From an uncultured Candidatus Binatia bacterium (GTDB taxonomy: Bacteria; Desulfobacterota; Binatia; UBA9968; CAXXLF01): a stretch of 64,000 nt of DNA. The position numbers and the translations under genes were made by a program. The DNA lies in the NCBI GenBank assembly GCA_965218425.1, contig OZ244621.1, forward strand, positions 4,224,001 to 4,288,000. The letters run 5' to 3'. The notes below the pieces were generated by a model, which saw only the letters and a program-made list of their open reading frames with translations, ran no database searches and was not told the origin of the DNA. Positions 55,427-64,000 of the stretch are shown here, piece by piece (within the stretch, counting starts at the first letter, position 1; each line of letters starts with the position of its first letter).

Positions 55427-56516
55427 TTGATCCTCGTATAATATAATGACATCAGAAAAGGCTGGACTGTTTCCAGAAGGCGGTAACGAGACGAGGCCTG
55501 CGGCGCATTCGGCAAAGGGCGCGACGAGCATGGTGGCTGAGTTGAGCGAAGTCCTTGGCACAGAAGTTGGGCAGTTCATGATGCTTCCAGTATCCCCAGA
55601 GGTATTCGACGGGATTCAGTTCCGGTGCATAGGCCGGCAACCGTTCCAGCACCAACGCGCCTTCGGTAGCGGCAACAAAGTCCCGAACCAACCGGCTCTG
55701 GTGGCTGGGCAGTCCGTCCCACACTACCAGCAGCGGCCCGGAAACATGACGCATCAAGTGCTTCAGGAATTCGATGATCTGGGGGCTCTTGATGGCTCCC
55801 GGATACACTCGAAAGTACAAGCGCCACCAGGTGACTCCGGCGATGGCCGACAGACTCTTCCAGTTGAAGTGATATTGCAGCACTGGCGTCTGTCCTCGGG
55901 GCGACCACGTACGATACCGATTCGGCCGCTCGCTCAGCCCGCTTTCGTCCACGAACACTATGGTTCGCCCCTCGTTTCGGGCTTTTTTTTAATCTCCGGC
56001 CAGCGCTTCTTCTTCCACTGCCGGATCGCCTCTTCATCTCGTTCCAAGGCACGTCCCGTCGGCCGCTGGCAACTCCACCCCAACTGCCGCAATATCCGCC
56101 AAACATAGCCCGGATGGTATGTGACTCCGCAGGCTTCCCCAATCAAGTGGGCCACTCGCCTTGCGGTCCACAGGCTCGTGTCGTACCCCAGCGCTTCGGG
56201 TCCCCGTTTCAAACCGCCCTCGATCTTCTTCAGATCCGCCGGGCTCAGTCGCGGCTTGCGTCCGGCACGCCCCGCCTGCTTGAGCCCGGCTCTGCCGCTC
56301 TCGGCCAACTGCCGCGCCCATCGATTCACCGACTGGCGGTGCACTCCCACCCAACGCGCCACCTCCGCCTCCGACAGCCCTCGCTTCAACAGCCTCCCCG
56401 CCTCCATCCGCCGCCGCTCCAATGCTTCAAAGTCCCGTCGCACTCCAAGTGGGTTTCCCATACCACCACTATACATTAAGTTCTTATCCAATGTCATTAT
56501 ATTATGCGGCTCTCAA
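55427..56516 (-). mobile_element. IS630-family insertion sequence (1090 bp)
   Basis: IRs TTGATCCTCGTATAATATAATGACAT / TTGAGAGCCGCATAATATAATGACAT, flanked by TA on both sides. Confidence 0.93.
55452..56461 (-). CDS. IS630 transposase, two ORFs joined by a -1 frameshift at A8G (55982-55990)
   Basis: HTH ORF ends WPEIKKK; the -1 frame continues ARNEGRTIVFVDESG...VWDGLPSH...YAPELNPVE. Confidence 0.88.
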
Positions 56517-56569: not shown

Positions 56570-58192
56570 TTACTTCGATTTTGTGCCGGTATTTTCACGC
56601 TCCTGAGCAAACTTTTTCCCTGTTTCATAATACCGGCTTTCGACTGCTATACGGGCCTCTTGTTCCCGCTCTTTTGGCCAAAAACCCAGGTTCTCACCGT
56701 ACCAGGGTGTCTTGAGATGCAACGGAGGCAGACCTAGTTCATCCCAAATTTTCAATGCATGCTCCATGTACTCACGTTTCGGTAAAGAGGTTGGAGCATA
56801 GGGCCATTTTCGAGTTGCATCTATCATCATGCATGATGCCCGGGGATCCTCCCTTCTCATCTTTTCGCTCCTTCGCTTTTCCTCTGGGGCTGCAATTGAC
56901 GGATCTAGAGACATCTCATACATTGGCATCATACGAACATCACGCTTGGGTTGAAATCGAAAGGCAAGGGCCCAATTAACCGAGTCAGCATCCCGCGCAT
57001 CAATATCGTCGTCAACCACAACGATCATCTTCGAATACAATCTCGGAGGAAATACATCAAATATGCGCCCAACCTGGCCGGGCTTAGGGTCTTTAACCTG
57101 AACCACATCTAAGCCCCAGCTTCCGGTTGATTCATGCAGCGCAATTTGAAGGACATTGTCCATACCATGGTCTTCACGAAGAACTTTTATGATCATATTT
57201 TCCCGGGCAACTCCCCGCAGTATACTGCTCTCGCTGGGAGGGAACTGGCTGACGAAAGCTTGAAAGACTGGATTGTTGCGGTGGGTAATTGCAGTGACAT
57301 CCATAAATAGTGTGCTGTTCGTAGTTGTCATATAACCGGGAAACTCGCCAAAGGGCCCCTCCAATTCAAGCTCGTCGGTTGGAATGATTCCTTCCACGAC
57401 AATCTCGGCATGTGCTGGGACTTCCAGGTCCACAGTCTTGCATCTGACCAACTCCACAGGCTGTCCGGCAATCCCACCTGCCACATGGTACTCGTCCACA
57501 TCCCGTGGTAACTTTGCCGTGGCACAGTAAGAAAGATTCGGCGTCAATCCAATGATCAAGGCCGCCGGCATCGGCTCACCTCCATCTCGATATTTCTCCC
57601 ACTGGTACCACATGTCTTGAACCTTTCCCGCATTGCAACCCATCCGAAGAGGTGCCTTGATCTGACCCCGATAGTTGCCCAAATTGTAGCGCCCCGTTTC
57701 TGGATCGCGTGATAGCCAATAAGACGCGCTGGTATAGGGTGCGTTATCGAAACCAGGTGTGGAGATCGGCACAGGCAAGATGCCAACCCCTCCTAACCGT
57801 TCTAAATCCTTCCCAGTATAGACGTTCTCATGAACAAGACCATGGGCTACGAGCACCGGAGGTATGGGATTTTTTTGGGACGCGATCCATCGGTCGGTAA
57901 TTTGGCTCACATTATCGACCTGCATTCCTAAAGCGTAAATCTCCCGGGAAGCTGCGGTACACCCCACCACCACGGGCATATCAAAGGAACGGCCGGTCGA
58001 ATCCACCACATTTTCGAACAGAAATGCACGTCGCTCGGACTCAGGAAGACCACGGAACTGAAGACGTACGAGCGGGCCTATTTCGGTATCCTTATTGACC
58101 TGCCGCTTAACTCGGATGAGCTTTCCTCGCTGTTCCAGGATCGAAAGATAACTTTGCATGTCGGAATAATATTTAGCGGTTTTTTCACTCAT
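56570..58192 (-). CDS. UbiD-family (prFMN) decarboxylase
   Basis: AFLFENV, NLGNYR, EGPFGE and VVVDDDIDARD motifs. Confidence 0.9.
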   Translation of the reverse strand: MSEKTAKYYSDMQSYLSILEQRGKLIRVKRQVNKDTEIGPLVRLQFRGLPESERRAFLFENVVDSTGRSFDMPVVVGCTAASREIYALGMQVDNVSQITDRWIASQKNPIPPVLVAHGLVHENVYTGKDLERLGGVGILPVPISTPGFDNAPYTSASYWLSRDPETGRYNLGNYRGQIKAPLRMGCNAGKVQDMWYQWEKYRDGGEPMPAALIIGLTPNLSYCATAKLPRDVDEYHVAGGIAGQPVELVRCKTVDLEVPAHAEIVVEGIIPTDELELEGPFGEFPGYMTTTNSTLFMDVTAITHRNNPVFQAFVSQFPPSESSILRGVARENMIIKVLREDHGMDNVLQIALHESTGSWGLDVVQVKDPKPGQVGRIFDVFPPRLYSKMIVVVDDDIDARDADSVNWALAFRFQPKRDVRMMPMYEMSLDPSIAAPEEKRRSEKMRREDPRASCMMIDATRKWPYAPTSLPKREYMEHALKIWDELGLPPLHLKTPWYGENLGFWPKEREQEARIAVESRYYETGKKFAQERENTGTKSK

Positions 58193-58587: not shown

Positions 58588-59748
58588 GTGAAAAAACTCA
58601 ATCTCGCAATCAAAACGACATCGCTTATTTTCATCCTTTCCTGTCTGGGCCTGGCACAGGAAAGGCTCTCTGTTTCTGCTCAAGAAAAACCCTCCTGGCA
58701 GATTAAATGGCGTAAAACGGTTGAGGCCGCAAAAAAAGAAGGGCAGGTGACGATTTACGCATTTGGGGGTGCCACAATGCTCCCCATTGAGGCGGGTGTA
58801 TTCCAAAAGAGGTACCCAGAGATAAAAGTCGTCACAGTGAGCGGGAGTCCAGTGCGGCGTCTCCTCACAGAACGCAGAGCCGGCAAGTTCCTTGGGGACG
58901 TCGTTGTGGGTGGTTCCTCGACACCTTGGCGATTATATCGGGCCAAAGCACTGGATTCTATTAAAGCCGCAATGATATTGCCCGAGGTCCGTGATGAATC
59001 GAAATGGTGGCAAGGCAAGCATCGCTATACAGACCCAGAGAGAGAGTATGGTTTCGTGGTTATAGGGAATCCTCAGACGGGCGGCATCTACTATAACACA
59101 AACCTTATAAACCCAAATGAGTTCGGATCATTCTGGGACTTTCTTGATCCCAAGTGGAAAGGGAAAATCGCGGCCCGGGATGTAAGGTCGCCTGGTACTG
59201 GGACTTCAAATATGAGGGTTTTCTATTACAACCCCAAATTAGGTCCTCCTTTTATTCGGCGGCTTTTTAGTGAAATGGATATCACTCTTTTCCGTAATAG
59301 GAGGCAGGCGGTGGATTGGCTTGCGAATGGCAAGTATCCTATTTGCTTTTTCTGTTCCCGATCGACCATAGGTAGAGCTCAGCTGCAGGGGCTCCCAGTA
59401 GGTGCTTTTGGAGAAATGAAAGAAGGAGTTGGCCTCACGTCAAGTAGCGGCAATATTGGTTTAATGAATAAAGCACCTCATCCGAATGCAGCTAAGGTAT
59501 ATATTAACTGGTTCCTATCCCGCGAGGGACAACTCACATTGCAAAGAGAATATTCGAAAGCTCTAGTGAGCTCTTCAAATTCTCTGCGTATTGATATTCC
59601 AAAGGACATGATTCCACCGGCGCAGCGGCTTAGGGATGACGTTACGTATATTGAGGCGGACACCCCCGAACGGATGTTCATGAAACCCATTCTCAAAGTT
59701 TTTGTCGAGGCGCTGGCCGAGGCGAAATCACGGAAGAAGCATCGCTAA
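58588..59748 (+). CDS. ABC transporter solute-binding protein
   Basis: Signal peptide and KAPHPNAAKVYINWFLSREGQ. GTG start follows AAGGAGG. Confidence 0.87.
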   Translation: MKKLNLAIKTTSLIFILSCLGLAQERLSVSAQEKPSWQIKWRKTVEAAKKEGQVTIYAFGGATMLPIEAGVFQKRYPEIKVVTVSGSPVRRLLTERRAGKFLGDVVVGGSSTPWRLYRAKALDSIKAAMILPEVRDESKWWQGKHRYTDPEREYGFVVIGNPQTGGIYYNTNLINPNEFGSFWDFLDPKWKGKIAARDVRSPGTGTSNMRVFYYNPKLGPPFIRRLFSEMDITLFRNRRQAVDWLANGKYPICFFCSRSTIGRAQLQGLPVGAFGEMKEGVGLTSSSGNIGLMNKAPHPNAAKVYINWFLSREGQLTLQREYSKALVSSSNSLRIDIPKDMIPPAQRLRDDVTYIEADTPERMFMKPILKVFVEALAEAKSRKKHR

Positions 59749-59791: not shown

Positions 59792-60808
59792 TCAATTGGC
59801 CTCCTCTTCACGATAGACACCTAAGGCTTCCATCACGGGTCTATCGTTCATGACAAAGAGGACCGCAGATTCACGTGAACGGCTGCCATGATGATGCCAT
59901 CGCCATAGTGGGACTACAAAAGTGTCTCCGGTCTCCCAATCATAACGAGTATCGCCAATGACCGTAAACCCCTTGCCCTCAAAGACATGATAGATCGCTG
60001 TACTCGTGTGGCGATGTGACCTAGTCTGTTCGCGCGGTCGTAACATTTGCATCTCGCACGAAAGCGTCGGAAGAGTGGGTCCACCGGTCAACGGATTTAC
60101 AAATCGTAGTAATATGCCTTCGAATGGGTCACCAGGTCTTTCACCCAAAACCCGCAAGGCGCTTTCAGTCTCTTTCCAAGGGTAACGATACGGGGGGGGC
60201 TGTATCGACTTCGAAGAGACCCAGTTTGCACGTACGGGACCTAATTCATAAGCAGAATGGTCCACGGGTTTTGTTAGGGTTTGTTGTTTTTCTTTGTATG
60301 GCTCACTGAATCCGACTTGCAGCAACCAGATCAAGGGACCATCGGCTCCATCCATCCACATAATGGGCTCCGAAGATCCGTTAAAGTGGTCGTGCCAGGT
60401 CAGGCCGGGCGTGGTAATGAAGTCGCCTCTCTCCATAGGAAACGGTTCCCCCTCAACTGTCGTCCGTGCGCCACCCCCTTTGAGCACAAATCGAATCGCA
60501 CCCATGGTGTGTCTGTGGGCCCGGGCAACTTCACCCGGGTTCACAATTTGAGCGCTGATCAGAAGGGTATGTGCGGCACCGTGCTTTAAAGTAGGGTTGC
60601 AAAAACTGATGGTTCTTCGCAAAGCATTTCCCTTGTCTACGACTTCTGCGGCCTCCACCAAGGCTTCATGTACATCCGTCCACCTCCACAAATAAGGTTC
60701 AAACGAGGAGCGGGGCTCTCTGGGAACATCCCTGGGAGTAGTATCGGTCCAGAATCCAACAAGGTTCTTCTTGGCTATTTTACGGTTAAAATCCTCTAAC
60801 CTGCTCAT
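59792..60808 (-). CDS. Gentisate 1,2-dioxygenase-like bicupin
   Basis: PGEVARAHRHT, TWHDH, WMDGAD, NPLTGGPTLPT and SHRHT motifs. Confidence 0.87.
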   Translation of the reverse strand: MSRLEDFNRKIAKKNLVGFWTDTTPRDVPREPRSSFEPYLWRWTDVHEALVEAAEVVDKGNALRRTISFCNPTLKHGAAHTLLISAQIVNPGEVARAHRHTMGAIRFVLKGGGARTTVEGEPFPMERGDFITTPGLTWHDHFNGSSEPIMWMDGADGPLIWLLQVGFSEPYKEKQQTLTKPVDHSAYELGPVRANWVSSKSIQPPPYRYPWKETESALRVLGERPGDPFEGILLRFVNPLTGGPTLPTLSCEMQMLRPREQTRSHRHTSTAIYHVFEGKGFTVIGDTRYDWETGDTFVVPLWRWHHHGSRSRESAVLFVMNDRPVMEALGVYREEEAN

Positions 60809-61097
60809 GATATCCTCCTATGAGCAAGGCCGCGTGAAACGCATACAATTTCGGCCTAATCGTTACTTTTAAGTTAGATTCTTAATTGGCTTGCGGAGCG
60901 GTGTCAACCATTCGCATCCGAAACGGACAAGCCACTACTGTCGAGGTTCAGCGACAATGTGTTCCTGATGATAATTGATTCAATGCCAACTCTATTTCCA
61001 GCGGTTTGACAAGGGGCGGACAGGGTGATATTGGCCAGCTTGAGCCACCTAAACTAATTCCGTTTCGTTTTGAAGAACAAAAGTGACAGTAATAAAA

Positions 61098-61292
61098 AAG
61101 TGCTATCGCTTCTGGTTTGAGAGTTTGACCAAGCAATATGGATTGATGGAGGTGGAGGCTCATTATTTCCGGCTGCATGTCAGGAGGTCGGGGACATGAC
61201 AACCCGGTCAAGCCTACTTCAACTTTCTGAATGCTATTAATTACAGCCACCATCCTTCAAAGAGACTAAGCGACGTGGAGCAAAGTCGACGT
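61098..61292 (+). pseudogene. Decayed remnant of a paralogue of 61381-62199
   Basis: WFESLTKQYGLMEVEAHYFRLH and YFNFLNAINYSHHPSKRLSDVEQSRR match WFKSLVKHYGLTEDEAFYFHLH and YLSFLDMVYYTYHPTKRLSDVEQFRR. Confidence 0.75.
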
Positions 61293-61380
61293 CAGCTCAA
61301 TGCATTTGCTTTGACACAGCATTGGTTATCAGGTTGTTAAGTTTCATGCCTTAGCAGGAAATGCGAAAGGAGTATCAAAG

Positions 61381-62199
61381 ATGGTTTCGGACAAGGTGAA
61401 GCACAAGAAGGTAGACCGTAGGGAGTGCTGGAAAGTGGTGAACGAAGCGTTCGACGAAGCGCTTCAGATGGCTCGTGATCGTCTTTTCAGTCATCCATTT
61501 ACCCGGGAGTTACAGACCGGGACTCTGCCCATCGAGTGCATTCGCGGTTGGCTACTCAACAGCTACACTTGGGCGTTGGAGATTAACAGTTCGGCTGCCT
61601 ACAAATTCTATCTCTTCAGTGACCTGCTTAATCAAAAGGTGGATCTTTTGGCGATGCTGGCAGACAAGCGCGGGGATGAGTATGCAACTCCGGGACGCGG
61701 TGGTCACCAGCGGACCATGGATACCTTGGGCAGGGCCCTGGGCCTCGACCCCAAGGAAATGCAAGAGTATAAACAGCTTCCAGCCATGCGCGGAATGCTG
61801 GATTCCAACGTGTGGGGCAACGAAGTCAATCAGCGGCTGGGCATGAGCATCGCCGAAGAGTTGCTGGGACATTGGTGCGCCCTATGGTTTAAAAGCCTCG
61901 TAAAGCACTACGGACTAACTGAAGATGAGGCCTTCTATTTTCACCTCCACGCGGAGGCGGACAGCCTCGATGATCATGGTGCCGGGGATTCGGTTGGGCA
62001 CGAGGTGATGGGGCACGCGCAGAGCCACCGGTATTTGGCGGTGAGGATGTTGGAGGATAGAATAGTGGAAACTGCAGAGATGCGTCAATCGATACTCCGG
62101 CAGGGCAATCTGGAAGGTTATCTGAGCTTTCTCGATATGGTTTATTATACTTATCATCCAACCAAGAGGTTGAGCGATGTCGAACAGTTTAGACGTTAG
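61381..62199 (+). CDS. Heme-oxygenase-like (TenA/PqqC/CADD family) protein with candidate diiron ligands
   Basis: HPF..EL..GTL N-terminus, then DE...H, AEE and YFHLHAEAD...H in CADD-like order. Confidence 0.7.
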   Translation: MVSDKVKHKKVDRRECWKVVNEAFDEALQMARDRLFSHPFTRELQTGTLPIECIRGWLLNSYTWALEINSSAAYKFYLFSDLLNQKVDLLAMLADKRGDEYATPGRGGHQRTMDTLGRALGLDPKEMQEYKQLPAMRGMLDSNVWGNEVNQRLGMSIAEELLGHWCALWFKSLVKHYGLTEDEAFYFHLHAEADSLDDHGAGDSVGHEVMGHAQSHRYLAVRMLEDRIVETAEMRQSILRQGNLEGYLSFLDMVYYTYHPTKRLSDVEQFRR

Positions 62200-62959
62200 T
62201 CAACCACAGCGGCAAAGGCTTCCCACTGCGGAGGCCGAAGCAAAAGCTCAAGTGCTTCTGAAGCTCACTGACGATCTCGTAGGTGAGTACATCATGGACC
62301 ACCCCTTCACACACCGGCTAGCGGCAGGAGACCTCCCTTTGGAGGTGATTCAAGCGGCATGTCTGGATTGGTACACATTCCATCGGAAGCTGGCGGCCAG
62401 CTTCGCCCGGCTTTACCATCGATTTATTGTGATCTGCAGGACTTACACGGATATTGAAGAGGAGTTCCTGGAACGGATCTCCCATGAATTGACGCGGCCC
62501 ATAGCAGGGGGACGCACTTTGCTGTTGCGAGATTCTGTGAAAGCTCTGGGCATCCCTGAGGCTAGGCTGAACAACCCGCCCCAAGGGGCCGACCTTCGGG
62601 GACTCGTGGCCCTTTTTGGCCGCTTGCACTCAGAAGGGACCTTTGCTGAGGTTGTGGCTGGCCAGTTTGGCAGCGCATTTACACCCTATGCACGTCTTTG
62701 GCATAACCTTCTGAAGAATCGCCACGGGATCCCCGACCACGCCAATCAGTATTGGGAGATGAACTCGCACTTGGACCAGGACAAAACTGGCGGGGGCGTT
62801 TTGGGAACAAGGTTTGAGAATGCCTATCTATTGCGGCGCCTATTCGAGGAGGGTCTCACCGAGACTCGATATAACTGGAGTGTGGAGTATGCGGCGGAGA
62901 TGGCTATTAAAGTCTGGGCACTGTTATTGCGAGGTTATATCCGTCGCTTTAAGCTCTAG
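62177..62959 (+). CDS. Heme-oxygenase-like (TenA/PqqC family) protein lacking most metal ligands
   Basis: HPFTHRLAAGDLP...ALGI scaffold homologous to the upstream gene; overlaps it by 23 nt. Confidence 0.65.
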   Translation: MSNSLDVSQPQRQRLPTAEAEAKAQVLLKLTDDLVGEYIMDHPFTHRLAAGDLPLEVIQAACLDWYTFHRKLAASFARLYHRFIVICRTYTDIEEEFLERISHELTRPIAGGRTLLLRDSVKALGIPEARLNNPPQGADLRGLVALFGRLHSEGTFAEVVAGQFGSAFTPYARLWHNLLKNRHGIPDHANQYWEMNSHLDQDKTGGGVLGTRFENAYLLRRLFEEGLTETRYNWSVEYAAEMAIKVWALLLRGYIRRFKL

Positions 62960-63075
62960 CGGATAAAACCTTGCGCATTCTACTTTGATAGTTCTGCCCG
63001 AAATTACGCAATCGAAACCAAGGACAACTCAAGATTGCAAACAAAAAAGTTCATAACAGATAAAGGGTGACCTCG

Positions 63076-64000
63076 ATGGAACTATCCGACTTCAATCAGT
63101 GGTTAGCGGAAAAAAACCTGCAGGGTTTCTGGGCTAGGGAGCCGAGGGTTGGGGGCATGAAGCCCTATCTTTGGAAATGGGCTGATCTTAACCAGGCCCT
63201 GGAACTGGCCTCGGACCTTGTTCCTATGGATAAAACGGGAAGAAGAAACATTGGCTTGAGAAATCCTACTGTGACAGGTGGAGTAACGAACACAATCACG
63301 CTTGGGCTCCAAATCATCAAACCAGGCGAGTTTGCCCAGTGCCACCGCCACGTGGCCAGTGCAATCCGCTTTGTGGTTAAGGGCTCACCCAAAGCCTTCA
63401 CCGTTGTGGAGGGAGAACGGTTATACATGGAAGAGGGTGACTTGATCACCACGCCCAACTGGACCTGGCATGATCATTACAATGGCTCCGATGGATCAGT
63501 GATCTGGTTGGACGGGTTAGATGTCCGCCTTTTGGCCTACCTCAACGCACAGTTTAGCGAGTTGTTCTCTCAGGAACAGCAAGTCATTGAAAAGCCCGAT
63601 GGCTATTCCGCTAGGATGTTCGGATCTGCTCGGCCCAGTTGGCTAAAAAATCAACACCTGATTCCGCCATATCGCTACCCCTGGAAGGAGACTTATGCAA
63701 CTCTTTTAGCTCTGAAACAGAGCGACGGTGATCCATTTGATGGAGTCCGGCTAGAATATAAAAATCCCTTTGACGGTGGACCCACTACGCTCACCTTTTC
63801 TTGCGAGGTTCAGCTTCTCAGACCAAAGGAAAAAACTCGATCCCATCGGCATACAACTACCACTGTCTATTATGTCTTCAGTGGCAAGGGGGTAACCACC
63901 ATAGAGGGAGAGAATTTATCCTGGGCCAAGGGGGATATCCTGACCATACCCCCTTGGCAATGGCATGCTCACCAAAATCCGTCCAACGATGATGCCATCC
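63076..64000 (+). CDS. Gentisate 1,2-dioxygenase-like bicupin (3' end outside window)
   Basis: Manual translation: MELSDFNQWLAEKNLQGFW...PGEFAQCHRHVASAIRF...TWHDH...WLDGLD...SHRHT. Open to the window edge; paralogue of 59792-60808. Confidence 0.87.
   Translation, partial: MELSDFNQWLAEKNLQGFWAREPRVGGMKPYLWKWADLNQALELASDLVPMDKTGRRNIGLRNPTVTGGVTNTITLGLQIIKPGEFAQCHRHVASAIRFVVKGSPKAFTVVEGERLYMEEGDLITTPNWTWHDHYNGSDGSVIWLDGLDVRLLAYLNAQFSELFSQEQQVIEKPDGYSARMFGSARPSWLKNQHLIPPYRYPWKETYATLLALKQSDGDPFDGVRLEYKNPFDGGPTTLTFSCEVQLLRPKEKTRSHRHTTTTVYYVFSGKGVTTIEGENLSWAKGDILTIPPWQWHAHQNPSNDDAI

Follow-up and report, generated by a model that had tools for sequence, protein, structure and literature searches.

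A candidate heterodimeric heme-oxygenase-like dimetal oxidase in a catabolic gene neighbourhood of a Binatia genome

Why would a bacterium keep, in two overlapping genes, one heme-oxygenase-like protein with a full set of metal ligands and a homologue of the same fold that has lost most of them? The question is raised by a 64,000-nucleotide stretch of DNA (the window) from an uncultured Candidatus Binatia bacterium (GenBank assembly GCA_965218425.1, contig OZ244621.1, positions 4,224,001 to 4,288,000), in which gene A (61381..62199, plus strand) and gene B (62177..62959, plus strand) lie between two gentisate-1,2-dioxygenase-like genes. The original prediction, made from the sequence, was that an active and a ligand-less protein of this fold form a heterodimer that prepares aromatic substrates for the flanking cupins. 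The first part of this has gained substantial support: A and B are very probably one heterodimer, because natural fusions, mirrored clades, matched copy numbers, complementary loss of interface residues and a predicted complex all point to it. On balance we also favour a wider reading, in which the two proteins make up one heme-oxygenase-like dimetal oxidase (HDO), a heterodimer that descends from a homodimer and carries out one step in aromatic-acid catabolism. What is both well supported and new in this reading is the heterodimer; the two-sided cupin flank is a local feature.

Fold and metal-ligand positions of A and B

The products of the two genes, of 272 (A) and 260 (B) amino acids, are homologous (24% identity across 204 amino acids, E = 9 × 10−14), and the 3′ end of A overlaps the start of B by 23 nucleotides (62177..62199, plus strand), which confirms the gene coordinates and the relationship originally put forward. 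The overlap has the same length in all five tandem loci (the window, G004, L034, L035 and L038) and may couple the translation of A and B. Here and below, G000 is the genome that holds the window, G001, G002 and G004 are kin genomes, L numbers denote other DNA loci and P numbers denote library proteins.

Both proteins match Pfam TENA_THI-4 above its cut-off. Their AlphaFold models (predicted local distance difference test (pLDDT) of 80.5 for A and 75.8 for B) share CADD as the top Foldseek match (E = 8 × 10−5 for A and 5 × 10−6 for B), and the model of A, a seven-helix heme-oxygenase (HO) fold, superposes on CADD with a VIA Z of 19.1 and a root-mean-square deviation of 2.5 over 206 aligned residues. 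At the profile level, B matches CADD at E = 2 × 10−6, and a family profile built from 29 members aligns with it (1rcw) at E = 2 × 10−24; direct sequence searches of the PDB gave weak TenA and PqqC matches for A and none for B, and CADD was reached via the broader profile.

The metal ligands of CADD, which we take to be E81, H88, E142, H174, D178 and H181 (residue numbers counted by hand along the alignment), were used to map the site. In the profile alignment they fall on E100, H109, E159, H190, D194 and H212 of A, so that the claimed CADD order of diiron ligands holds, with a complete set of three histidines and three carboxylates. The same six are present in all 36 A-core rows (A-core and B-core rows are aligned relatives of A and B, respectively, and are redundant and related). 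The sixth ligand is uncertain, because an insert of 17 residues between D194 and H212 holds a further invariant histidine, H199; H212 is indicated by the alignment, with H199 as the alternative. The third core helix of A is modelled with low confidence (pLDDT 51–68 at residues 191–210) and resembles the labile helix of HDOs.

At the corresponding positions B has E104, R113, G165, N196, D200 and T211. Four of the six ligands have thus been replaced (R113, G165, N196 and T211), as had been estimated by eye, and none of the 40 B-core rows retains more than two, E104 being invariant and D200 kept in 27 of the 40. B is not a decaying pseudogene: ratios of non-synonymous to synonymous substitution (dN/dS) of 0.155 and 0.089 rule this out, the former from a comparison with G004 in which A, likewise under purifying selection, gives 0.16. 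Many polar residues of B are invariant (D64, R70, S75, R78, Q163, N196, E214 and N215). Sequence and modelled fold show that a CADD/UndA-type dimetal site can be formed by A, the predicted catalytic subunit, but not by B, the predicted metal-free partner.

The closest characterized proteins do not account for A. CADD (CT610) and NePabS, which are self-sacrificing 4-aminobenzoate synthases of the HDO type (1rcw, 8va9 and 9pj4), are the best structural and profile match of both A and B and share the ligand order of A. However, CADD sacrifices Tyr27 and Lys152 (PMC11965152), for which the profile alignment gives T41 and W169 in A, and A scores 18.8 against the TIGR04305 cut-off of 200 (B has no match); these results rule out a CADD-type 4-aminobenzoate synthase. 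Identity is 16–18%, CADD is a homodimer and the A/B locus has no folate context. PqqC and TenA share TENA_THI-4 with A and B, and databases label relatives of the pair ‘PqqC’ or ‘thiaminase’, but the full ligand set, a TIGR02111 score of 24 against a cut-off of 240 and the lack of pqq context exclude PqqC, and the ligand set also speaks against an ordinary TenA without a metal site. Neither pqq nor thiamin genes occur among the neighbours listed or scanned. Cys135 of TenA presumably falls on E159 of A and G165 of B; TenA profile matches end four positions before the ligand glutamate.

A shares the seven-helix fold (Z 12–17) and the E-H-E-H-D-H motif with UndA, BesC, SznF, HrmI, AetD, FlcD and RohS (PMC11363339). 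About a dozen HDOs have been validated, mostly on fatty or amino acids, and are described as needing no protein effector (PMC13108848); the HDOs compared here are biosynthetic, apart from SktA, which converts tryptophan to skatole. UndA, BesC, CADD, AetD, SznF and FlcD are homodimers, and about 9% of HDO sequence groups have no clear motif and may bind no metal, with no pairing to partners stated in the available text (PMC11363339). The main text of the 2026 HDO review contains neither ‘dimer’ nor ‘aromatic’ (PMC13108848), and the accessible literature on other HDOs describes no metal-free paralogous subunit. In keeping with the original impression that no such catabolic system had been described, we found neither a heterodimeric nor a ring-catabolic HDO in the literature searched, which was largely without subscription journals and supplements (for example, the networks and dimer figures for FlcD and SznF).

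Probable pairing of A with B

Nature has joined the two domains in single chains. Five of the 58 matches in a 50%-representative library are two-domain proteins of 483–519 amino acids, and two further relatives of P0060 were found. In P0060, P0116, P0117 and P0070 the N-terminal half has all six ligands and the C-terminal half is B-like, and in P0064, P0068 and P0065 a complete domain is fused to a ligand-poor domain of other clades. The P0060 fusion has no plasmid match and was not found outside G000 in a 401-genome sample of the phylum, in which three candidates were scored per genome; a search of the ESM Atlas matched only Binatota HO-fold clusters.

The phylogeny of the two subunits is mirrored. 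In a tree of 44 rows chosen from 183 domains plus the C-terminal half of P0070, which followed a quick-search tree, one clade (100/99) unites A, two paralogues from its genome, P0061, P0062 and the N-terminal halves of P0060, P0116 and P0070. A second (96/98) unites B, its paralogues, P0085, P0095 and the matching C-terminal halves of the fusions, that of P0070 on a long branch, and the two clades carry corresponding subgroups. Copy numbers of A and B are 3:3 in G000 and 1:1 in each of G001, G002 and G004, and they are equal in G001 and G002 even though the genes are unlinked there. Neither clade was found in the remaining 119 of the 123 genomes of the order, many of which are incomplete, nor elsewhere in a 301-genome sample of the class.

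The residues that A and B have lost are complementary. On the interface helix, all 34 non-redundant stand-alone, ligand-complete relatives carry an acidic (D/E) and a basic (R/K) residue at a spacing of three to four positions. The aspartate is kept in 43 of 43 members of the A group and 1 of 46 of the B group, and the arginine in none of the 43 and all of the 46. A C-terminal R-x-x-W-x-x-x-Y motif is distributed in a similar way to the arginine (27/34 stand-alone relatives, 0/43 A, 46/46 B), as is an EGT motif (26/34, 0/43 and 40/46, respectively). Because interface residues have been lost reciprocally, A and B are each left with half of a homodimer interface.

A heterodimer interface, which the original prediction implied, is also found by complex prediction, with a score of 0.71 for A with B and 0.00 for the best of three controls; in calibration, 116 of 157 solved complexes reached the mark for this score, as did 2 of 215 mismatched pairs. 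Agreement between the runs covers at least 90% of contacts, and the pLDDT of the partner is at least 88. D141 of A and R149 of B are among the closest contacts, and most of the residues retained in B only (R149, 232–235, 238 and 241–242) map to the predicted interface with A.

We hypothesize that a gene duplication was followed by a division of the halves of the symmetric dimer between the two copies, a history to which the interface residues point strongly. A would have retained the metal site and the interface-helix aspartate, and B the interface-helix arginine, the EGT motif that follows it and the C-terminal R-x-x-W-x-x-x-Y motif, which would dock onto A. B would then be indispensable as a structural partner, completing the site of A and perhaps gating it, much as PaaC serves PaaA in the unrelated ferritin fold. 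In the phenylacetyl-CoA epoxidase PaaA/PaaC, a catalytic diiron subunit forms a heterodimer with a homologous structural subunit (17% identity) in aromatic catabolism (PMC4498308). That enzyme is built on a ferritin-like four-helix core with two ExxH motifs, depends on PaaB and on PaaE, a reductase, and takes CoA esters as substrates; nothing of this kind was seen beside A/B. In the structural ranking for A, HO-fold entries come first (Z 19.1) and ferritin-like entries reach at best Z 10.4, and the ligand pattern is HDO-type; the likeness to PaaA/PaaC and other bacterial multicomponent monooxygenases would therefore be one of functional analogy, not of membership.

If the division is as proposed, the surrender of metal by one subunit and the shared-out interface would be a new architecture for the HDO family. 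The pair would also be a natural experiment, with one site permanently empty, on the half-of-sites coupling that has been proposed for SznF (bioRxiv 2020.07.29.227702). It predicts that A-type proteins are active only when co-expressed with their partner, or as natural fusions.

One B may serve more than one A, a possibility raised by two loci. L034 has the order A2, binding protein, A1, B, that is, two intact A-type genes for one B, and in the window a decayed A-type gene (61089..61292, plus strand), of which the 3′ third remains with stop codons and an internal deletion, lies just upstream of A.

The catabolic setting and the cupins

Granted the heterodimer, the gene context makes a role in aromatic catabolism likely. 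The divergent G1 (59792..60808, minus strand, 338 amino acids) and the downstream G2 (63067..64065, plus strand, 332 amino acids, ending 65 nucleotides past the window) are bicupins, each with two Cupin_2 stretches and HxH...H iron-site motifs that align to chains of the 3bu7, 2d40 and 2phd type. The gentisate-dioxygenase-like flanks first noticed here are therefore present, but both proteins fall below curated cut-offs. Scores for TIGR02272 are 275 (G1) and 229 (G2, on 311 of its 332 amino acids) against 442, and those for MabB are 309 and 282 against 650; for this reason we call them gentisate dioxygenase (GDO)-like. The TIGR02272 cut-off was passed in none of the 123 genomes of the order. 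A glycine at the salicylate-dioxygenase position of G2 was dropped as a clue to its substrate, because 3bu7 and 2d40 share it.

The next gene after G2, convergent with it and beyond the window (64116–65075), encodes a PhdJ/NahE-like hydratase-aldolase (E = 1 × 10−43, structure match 6dan). Bicupins (3bu7, 2d40 and 2phd) beside such an aldolase also characterize the PhdI/PhdJ and gentisate/salicylate 1,2-dioxygenase pathways, although G1 and G2 fall below the cut-offs of those families. Further on, the island contains LigB, NMT1-like, PanB-like and cupin genes and, by our own reading, Rieske and dehydrogenase genes, with amidohydrolase genes also nearby; on the other side, a gene for an ABC-type solute-binding protein (58588..59748, plus strand) is convergent with G1.

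In the mechanism that we propose, A would bind two metals, activate O2 and oxidize a carboxylate substrate, and the context suggests that this is one oxidative step on an imported aromatic or heteroaromatic acid. The likeliest step would be hydroxylation or oxidative trimming of a side chain to give a hydroxy-aryl carboxylate for a gentisate-type cupin, the product of which would be split by the PhdJ-like hydratase-aldolase. Known gentisate-type routes make the hydroxy-aryl acid via flavin or Rieske enzymes and are not known to use an HO-fold enzyme. A crude scan for Fe–S motifs, which would miss flavin reductases, detected no gene of ferredoxin type up to 10 kb from the pair, so that the enzyme might draw its electrons from a donor shared with other cellular systems or from the substrate itself. 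That A and B act upstream of the cupins is, overall, a real but doubtful possibility.

The fullest version of this scheme is rather unlikely as a whole. It would make the pair the first HDO that is obligately heterodimeric and also the first to oxygenate an aromatic ring for catabolism, with a metal-free pseudoenzyme that supplies the interface and a substrate gate in trans, and an aromatic or heteroaromatic acid hydroxylated without a dedicated reductase to feed gentisate-type cleavage and the PhdJ-like aldolase. Were it true, the pair would represent an HO-fold counterpart to PaaA/PaaC of independent origin, and an entry point to the dozens of unstudied HO-fold paralogues in each Binatia genome, among which metal-free partners would have arisen more than once. 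It would also offer a handle on aromatic degradation by Binatia through routes not yet described, this genome having about 36 genes of the HO fold and 17 that are gentisate-dioxygenase-like.

HO-fold genes keep company with cupins beyond this locus. In G000, 5 of 36 HO-fold genes have a strict GDO-like gene no more than 700 bp away, compared with 31 of 3316 genes (p = 1.6 × 10−5); the set excludes two genes with two ExxH motifs and a ferritin-like look (G000 3464091 and 3289372), with which the count is 6 of 38. Of the other expanded clusters, named by our own reading, three have few members near such genes (UbiD 1/72, Rieske 0/80 and amidohydrolase-like 4/119), but in a DHDPS-like cluster 2 of 10 do lie near one. 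Outside G000, a strict GDO-like gene lies within 1.5 kb at 17 of 51 loci of stand-alone relatives, across 4 of 10 sequence groups, the kin among them not being independent, and SznF couples its HDO domain to a cupin (PMC13108848). We regard the catabolic setting and a family-wide HDO–cupin association as real on the evidence of gene neighbourhoods. HO-fold genes appear to go with divergent cupin paralogues and not with the best-scoring GDO orthologue of the order (L080–L109, like G000 1883053), which for its part has a glutathione-transferase-like neighbour, identified by eye, at 8 of 30 loci.

The neighbourhoods of the pair itself are more varied. B-core loci with DNA number 11, in 5 of which B stands in tandem with A. 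The closest relative, G004 (89–92% identical), has no downstream cupin and carries the aldolase directly after B, its upstream side lying beyond the available DNA. In L034 an orthologue of G2 (76%) lies 5.3 kb downstream of the pair. L038 has an intact A–B pair (L038:5199-6780), flanked by a PIF1-like helicase/WYL gene on one side and a rhomboid gene on the other, and no catabolic genes were found within its 8.6 kb of housekeeping surroundings. G000 has a second tandem pair, A″/B″, at 174685–176402. Unlinked A paralogues are 4.5 kb (G000), 2.0 kb (G001) and 6.2 kb (G002) from a strict GDO-like gene.

Several of these comparisons weigh against the reading that we favour, some bearing on the heterodimer and others on its role. 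Six of the 11 B-core loci have no adjacent A and stand behind a UbiD gene (G000 1165504, G001, G002, L036, L037 and L039, of which L036 and L037 look near-identical), an unlinked A is shown for only the three of them that are whole genomes, and the four genomes with A and B all belong to one family. Because the interface in the predicted complex is pseudo-symmetric and the HDOs solved so far are homodimeric, the complex score may reflect known homodimers. As to the role, no characterized HDO acts in ring catabolism, the substrates listed in the available text of a review being fatty and amino acids (PMC13108848). Cupins lie directly beside the pair in one of four informative tandem loci, namely the window, and the A″/B″ pair is 303 kb from the nearest strict GDO-like gene. 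GDO-like genes are also abundant, with 17 strict examples in G000 and at least one in 119 of the 123 genomes of the order. Leaving out the window pair lowers the enrichment to 3 of 34 (p = 0.003); when genes of the same islands serve as the background, p is 0.0045 with the pair and 0.075 without it. In the reverse test, an HO-fold neighbour was found at 1 of the 30 best-scoring GDO loci, which are dominated by one or two orthologous groups.

A fixed four-gene module of cupin, A, B and cupin is accordingly rejected, the double flank being unique to the window among readable loci. What survives of the proposal that the pair prepares aromatic substrates for its flanking cupins is the catabolic setting and the family-wide association; and of the expected conservation of pair plus gentisate dioxygenase, the pair recurs in tandem and the direct flank does not.

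Competing accounts of the pair

The alternative that survives best accepts the heterodimer and places its action later than ring cleavage, or in a parallel route, such as oxidative C–C cleavage of an aliphatic or enone acid, with the cupins adjoining the pair because all share one catabolic island. We consider this unlikely, although such chemistry would be closer to that of known HDOs (UndA, BesC and FlcD), for which fatty or amino acids are the substrates known from the available text (PMC13108848), and although the pair has no fixed cupin partner. Some stand-alone relatives show the order cupin, HDO and then, directly or one gene on, an FAA hydrolase (G000 479452–476271; L067), which would suit a later step but belongs to another clade. 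The same account draws on a gene for a 177-amino-acid DinB/mycothiol-S-transferase-like protein that follows the unlinked A paralogue in three of three genomes (L077:9957-10487, L078:9256-9786 and L029:13066-13596). It has to reckon with the PhdJ-like hydratase-aldolase, which itself handles cupin products and already stands beside the pair in G000 and G004.

It is less probable still that A and B are separate proteins of the same pathway, A a homodimeric HDO and B a metal-free enzyme or binding protein, working in the manner of PqqC or TenA or as an accessory of UbiD. The B loci that stand behind UbiD without A would be readily explained in this way, as would the many invariant polar residues kept in B; consecutive enzymes of a pathway also fuse and co-occur, and PqqC and TenA use the HO fold without metal (PMC11363339). 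The reciprocal loss of interface residues, however, leaves neither protein with a whole homodimer interface, most B-only residues map to the predicted contact with A, and copy numbers are equal even where the genes are unlinked, all of which argue for the heterodimer.

Weakest, and very improbable, is a support protein that clears by-products of hydroquinone substrates, such as peroxide or quinone, or that loads and reactivates the iron of Fe(II) cupins, for although the HDO-like DtpC limits hydrogen peroxide in Acinetobacter (PMC13232832) and HO-fold genes of several unrelated clades adjoin cupins as a generic helper would, the at least 36 divergent paralogues in one genome fit substrate-specific enzymes better and 12 of the 17 GDO-like genes in G000 have no HO-fold neighbour.

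Several minor features complete the picture of the locus. A UbiD-family (de)carboxylase gene (56570..58192, minus strand) precedes the binding-protein gene in the window; by a small margin, its two closest paralogues among 65 other matches are at the locus of a B paralogue (B′). Two adjoining open reading frames (55452–56497, minus strand), which we take to resemble an IS630-type transposase, belong to a 20-copy cluster in the genome, one copy of which lies directly after the A″/B″ pair. A scan for promoters and terminators gave a result at chance level.

G000 is rich in paralogues of these families, with about 36 HO-fold and 17 strict GDO-like bicupin genes. Clusters that we named by our own reading hold 72 UbiD-like, 80 Rieske-like and 119 amidohydrolase-like genes, and 104 genes for binding proteins. 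At G000:C1:3047850-3049436 and 3601519-3604541, a ligand-poor HO-fold gene lies beside other HO-fold genes, in clades other than those of A and B; metal-free partners thus seem to have evolved repeatedly in G000. One HO-fold gene (G000:C1:3609925-3610754) is in two pieces (140 and 123 amino acids) and is probably frameshifted. The two small proteins with two ExxH motifs (G000:C1:3464091-3464738 and 3289372-3290043) look by eye like ferritin-like diiron proteins, and the gene of the first sits 18 bp downstream of a GDO-like gene, which suggests that GDO-like cupins are also paired with dimetal proteins of a second type. Four PhdJ/NahE-like aldolase paralogues of G000:C1 (4288116, 3040070, 3909035 and 3944792) are more than 50% identical, and none is farther than about 9 kb from a GDO-like or HO-fold gene.

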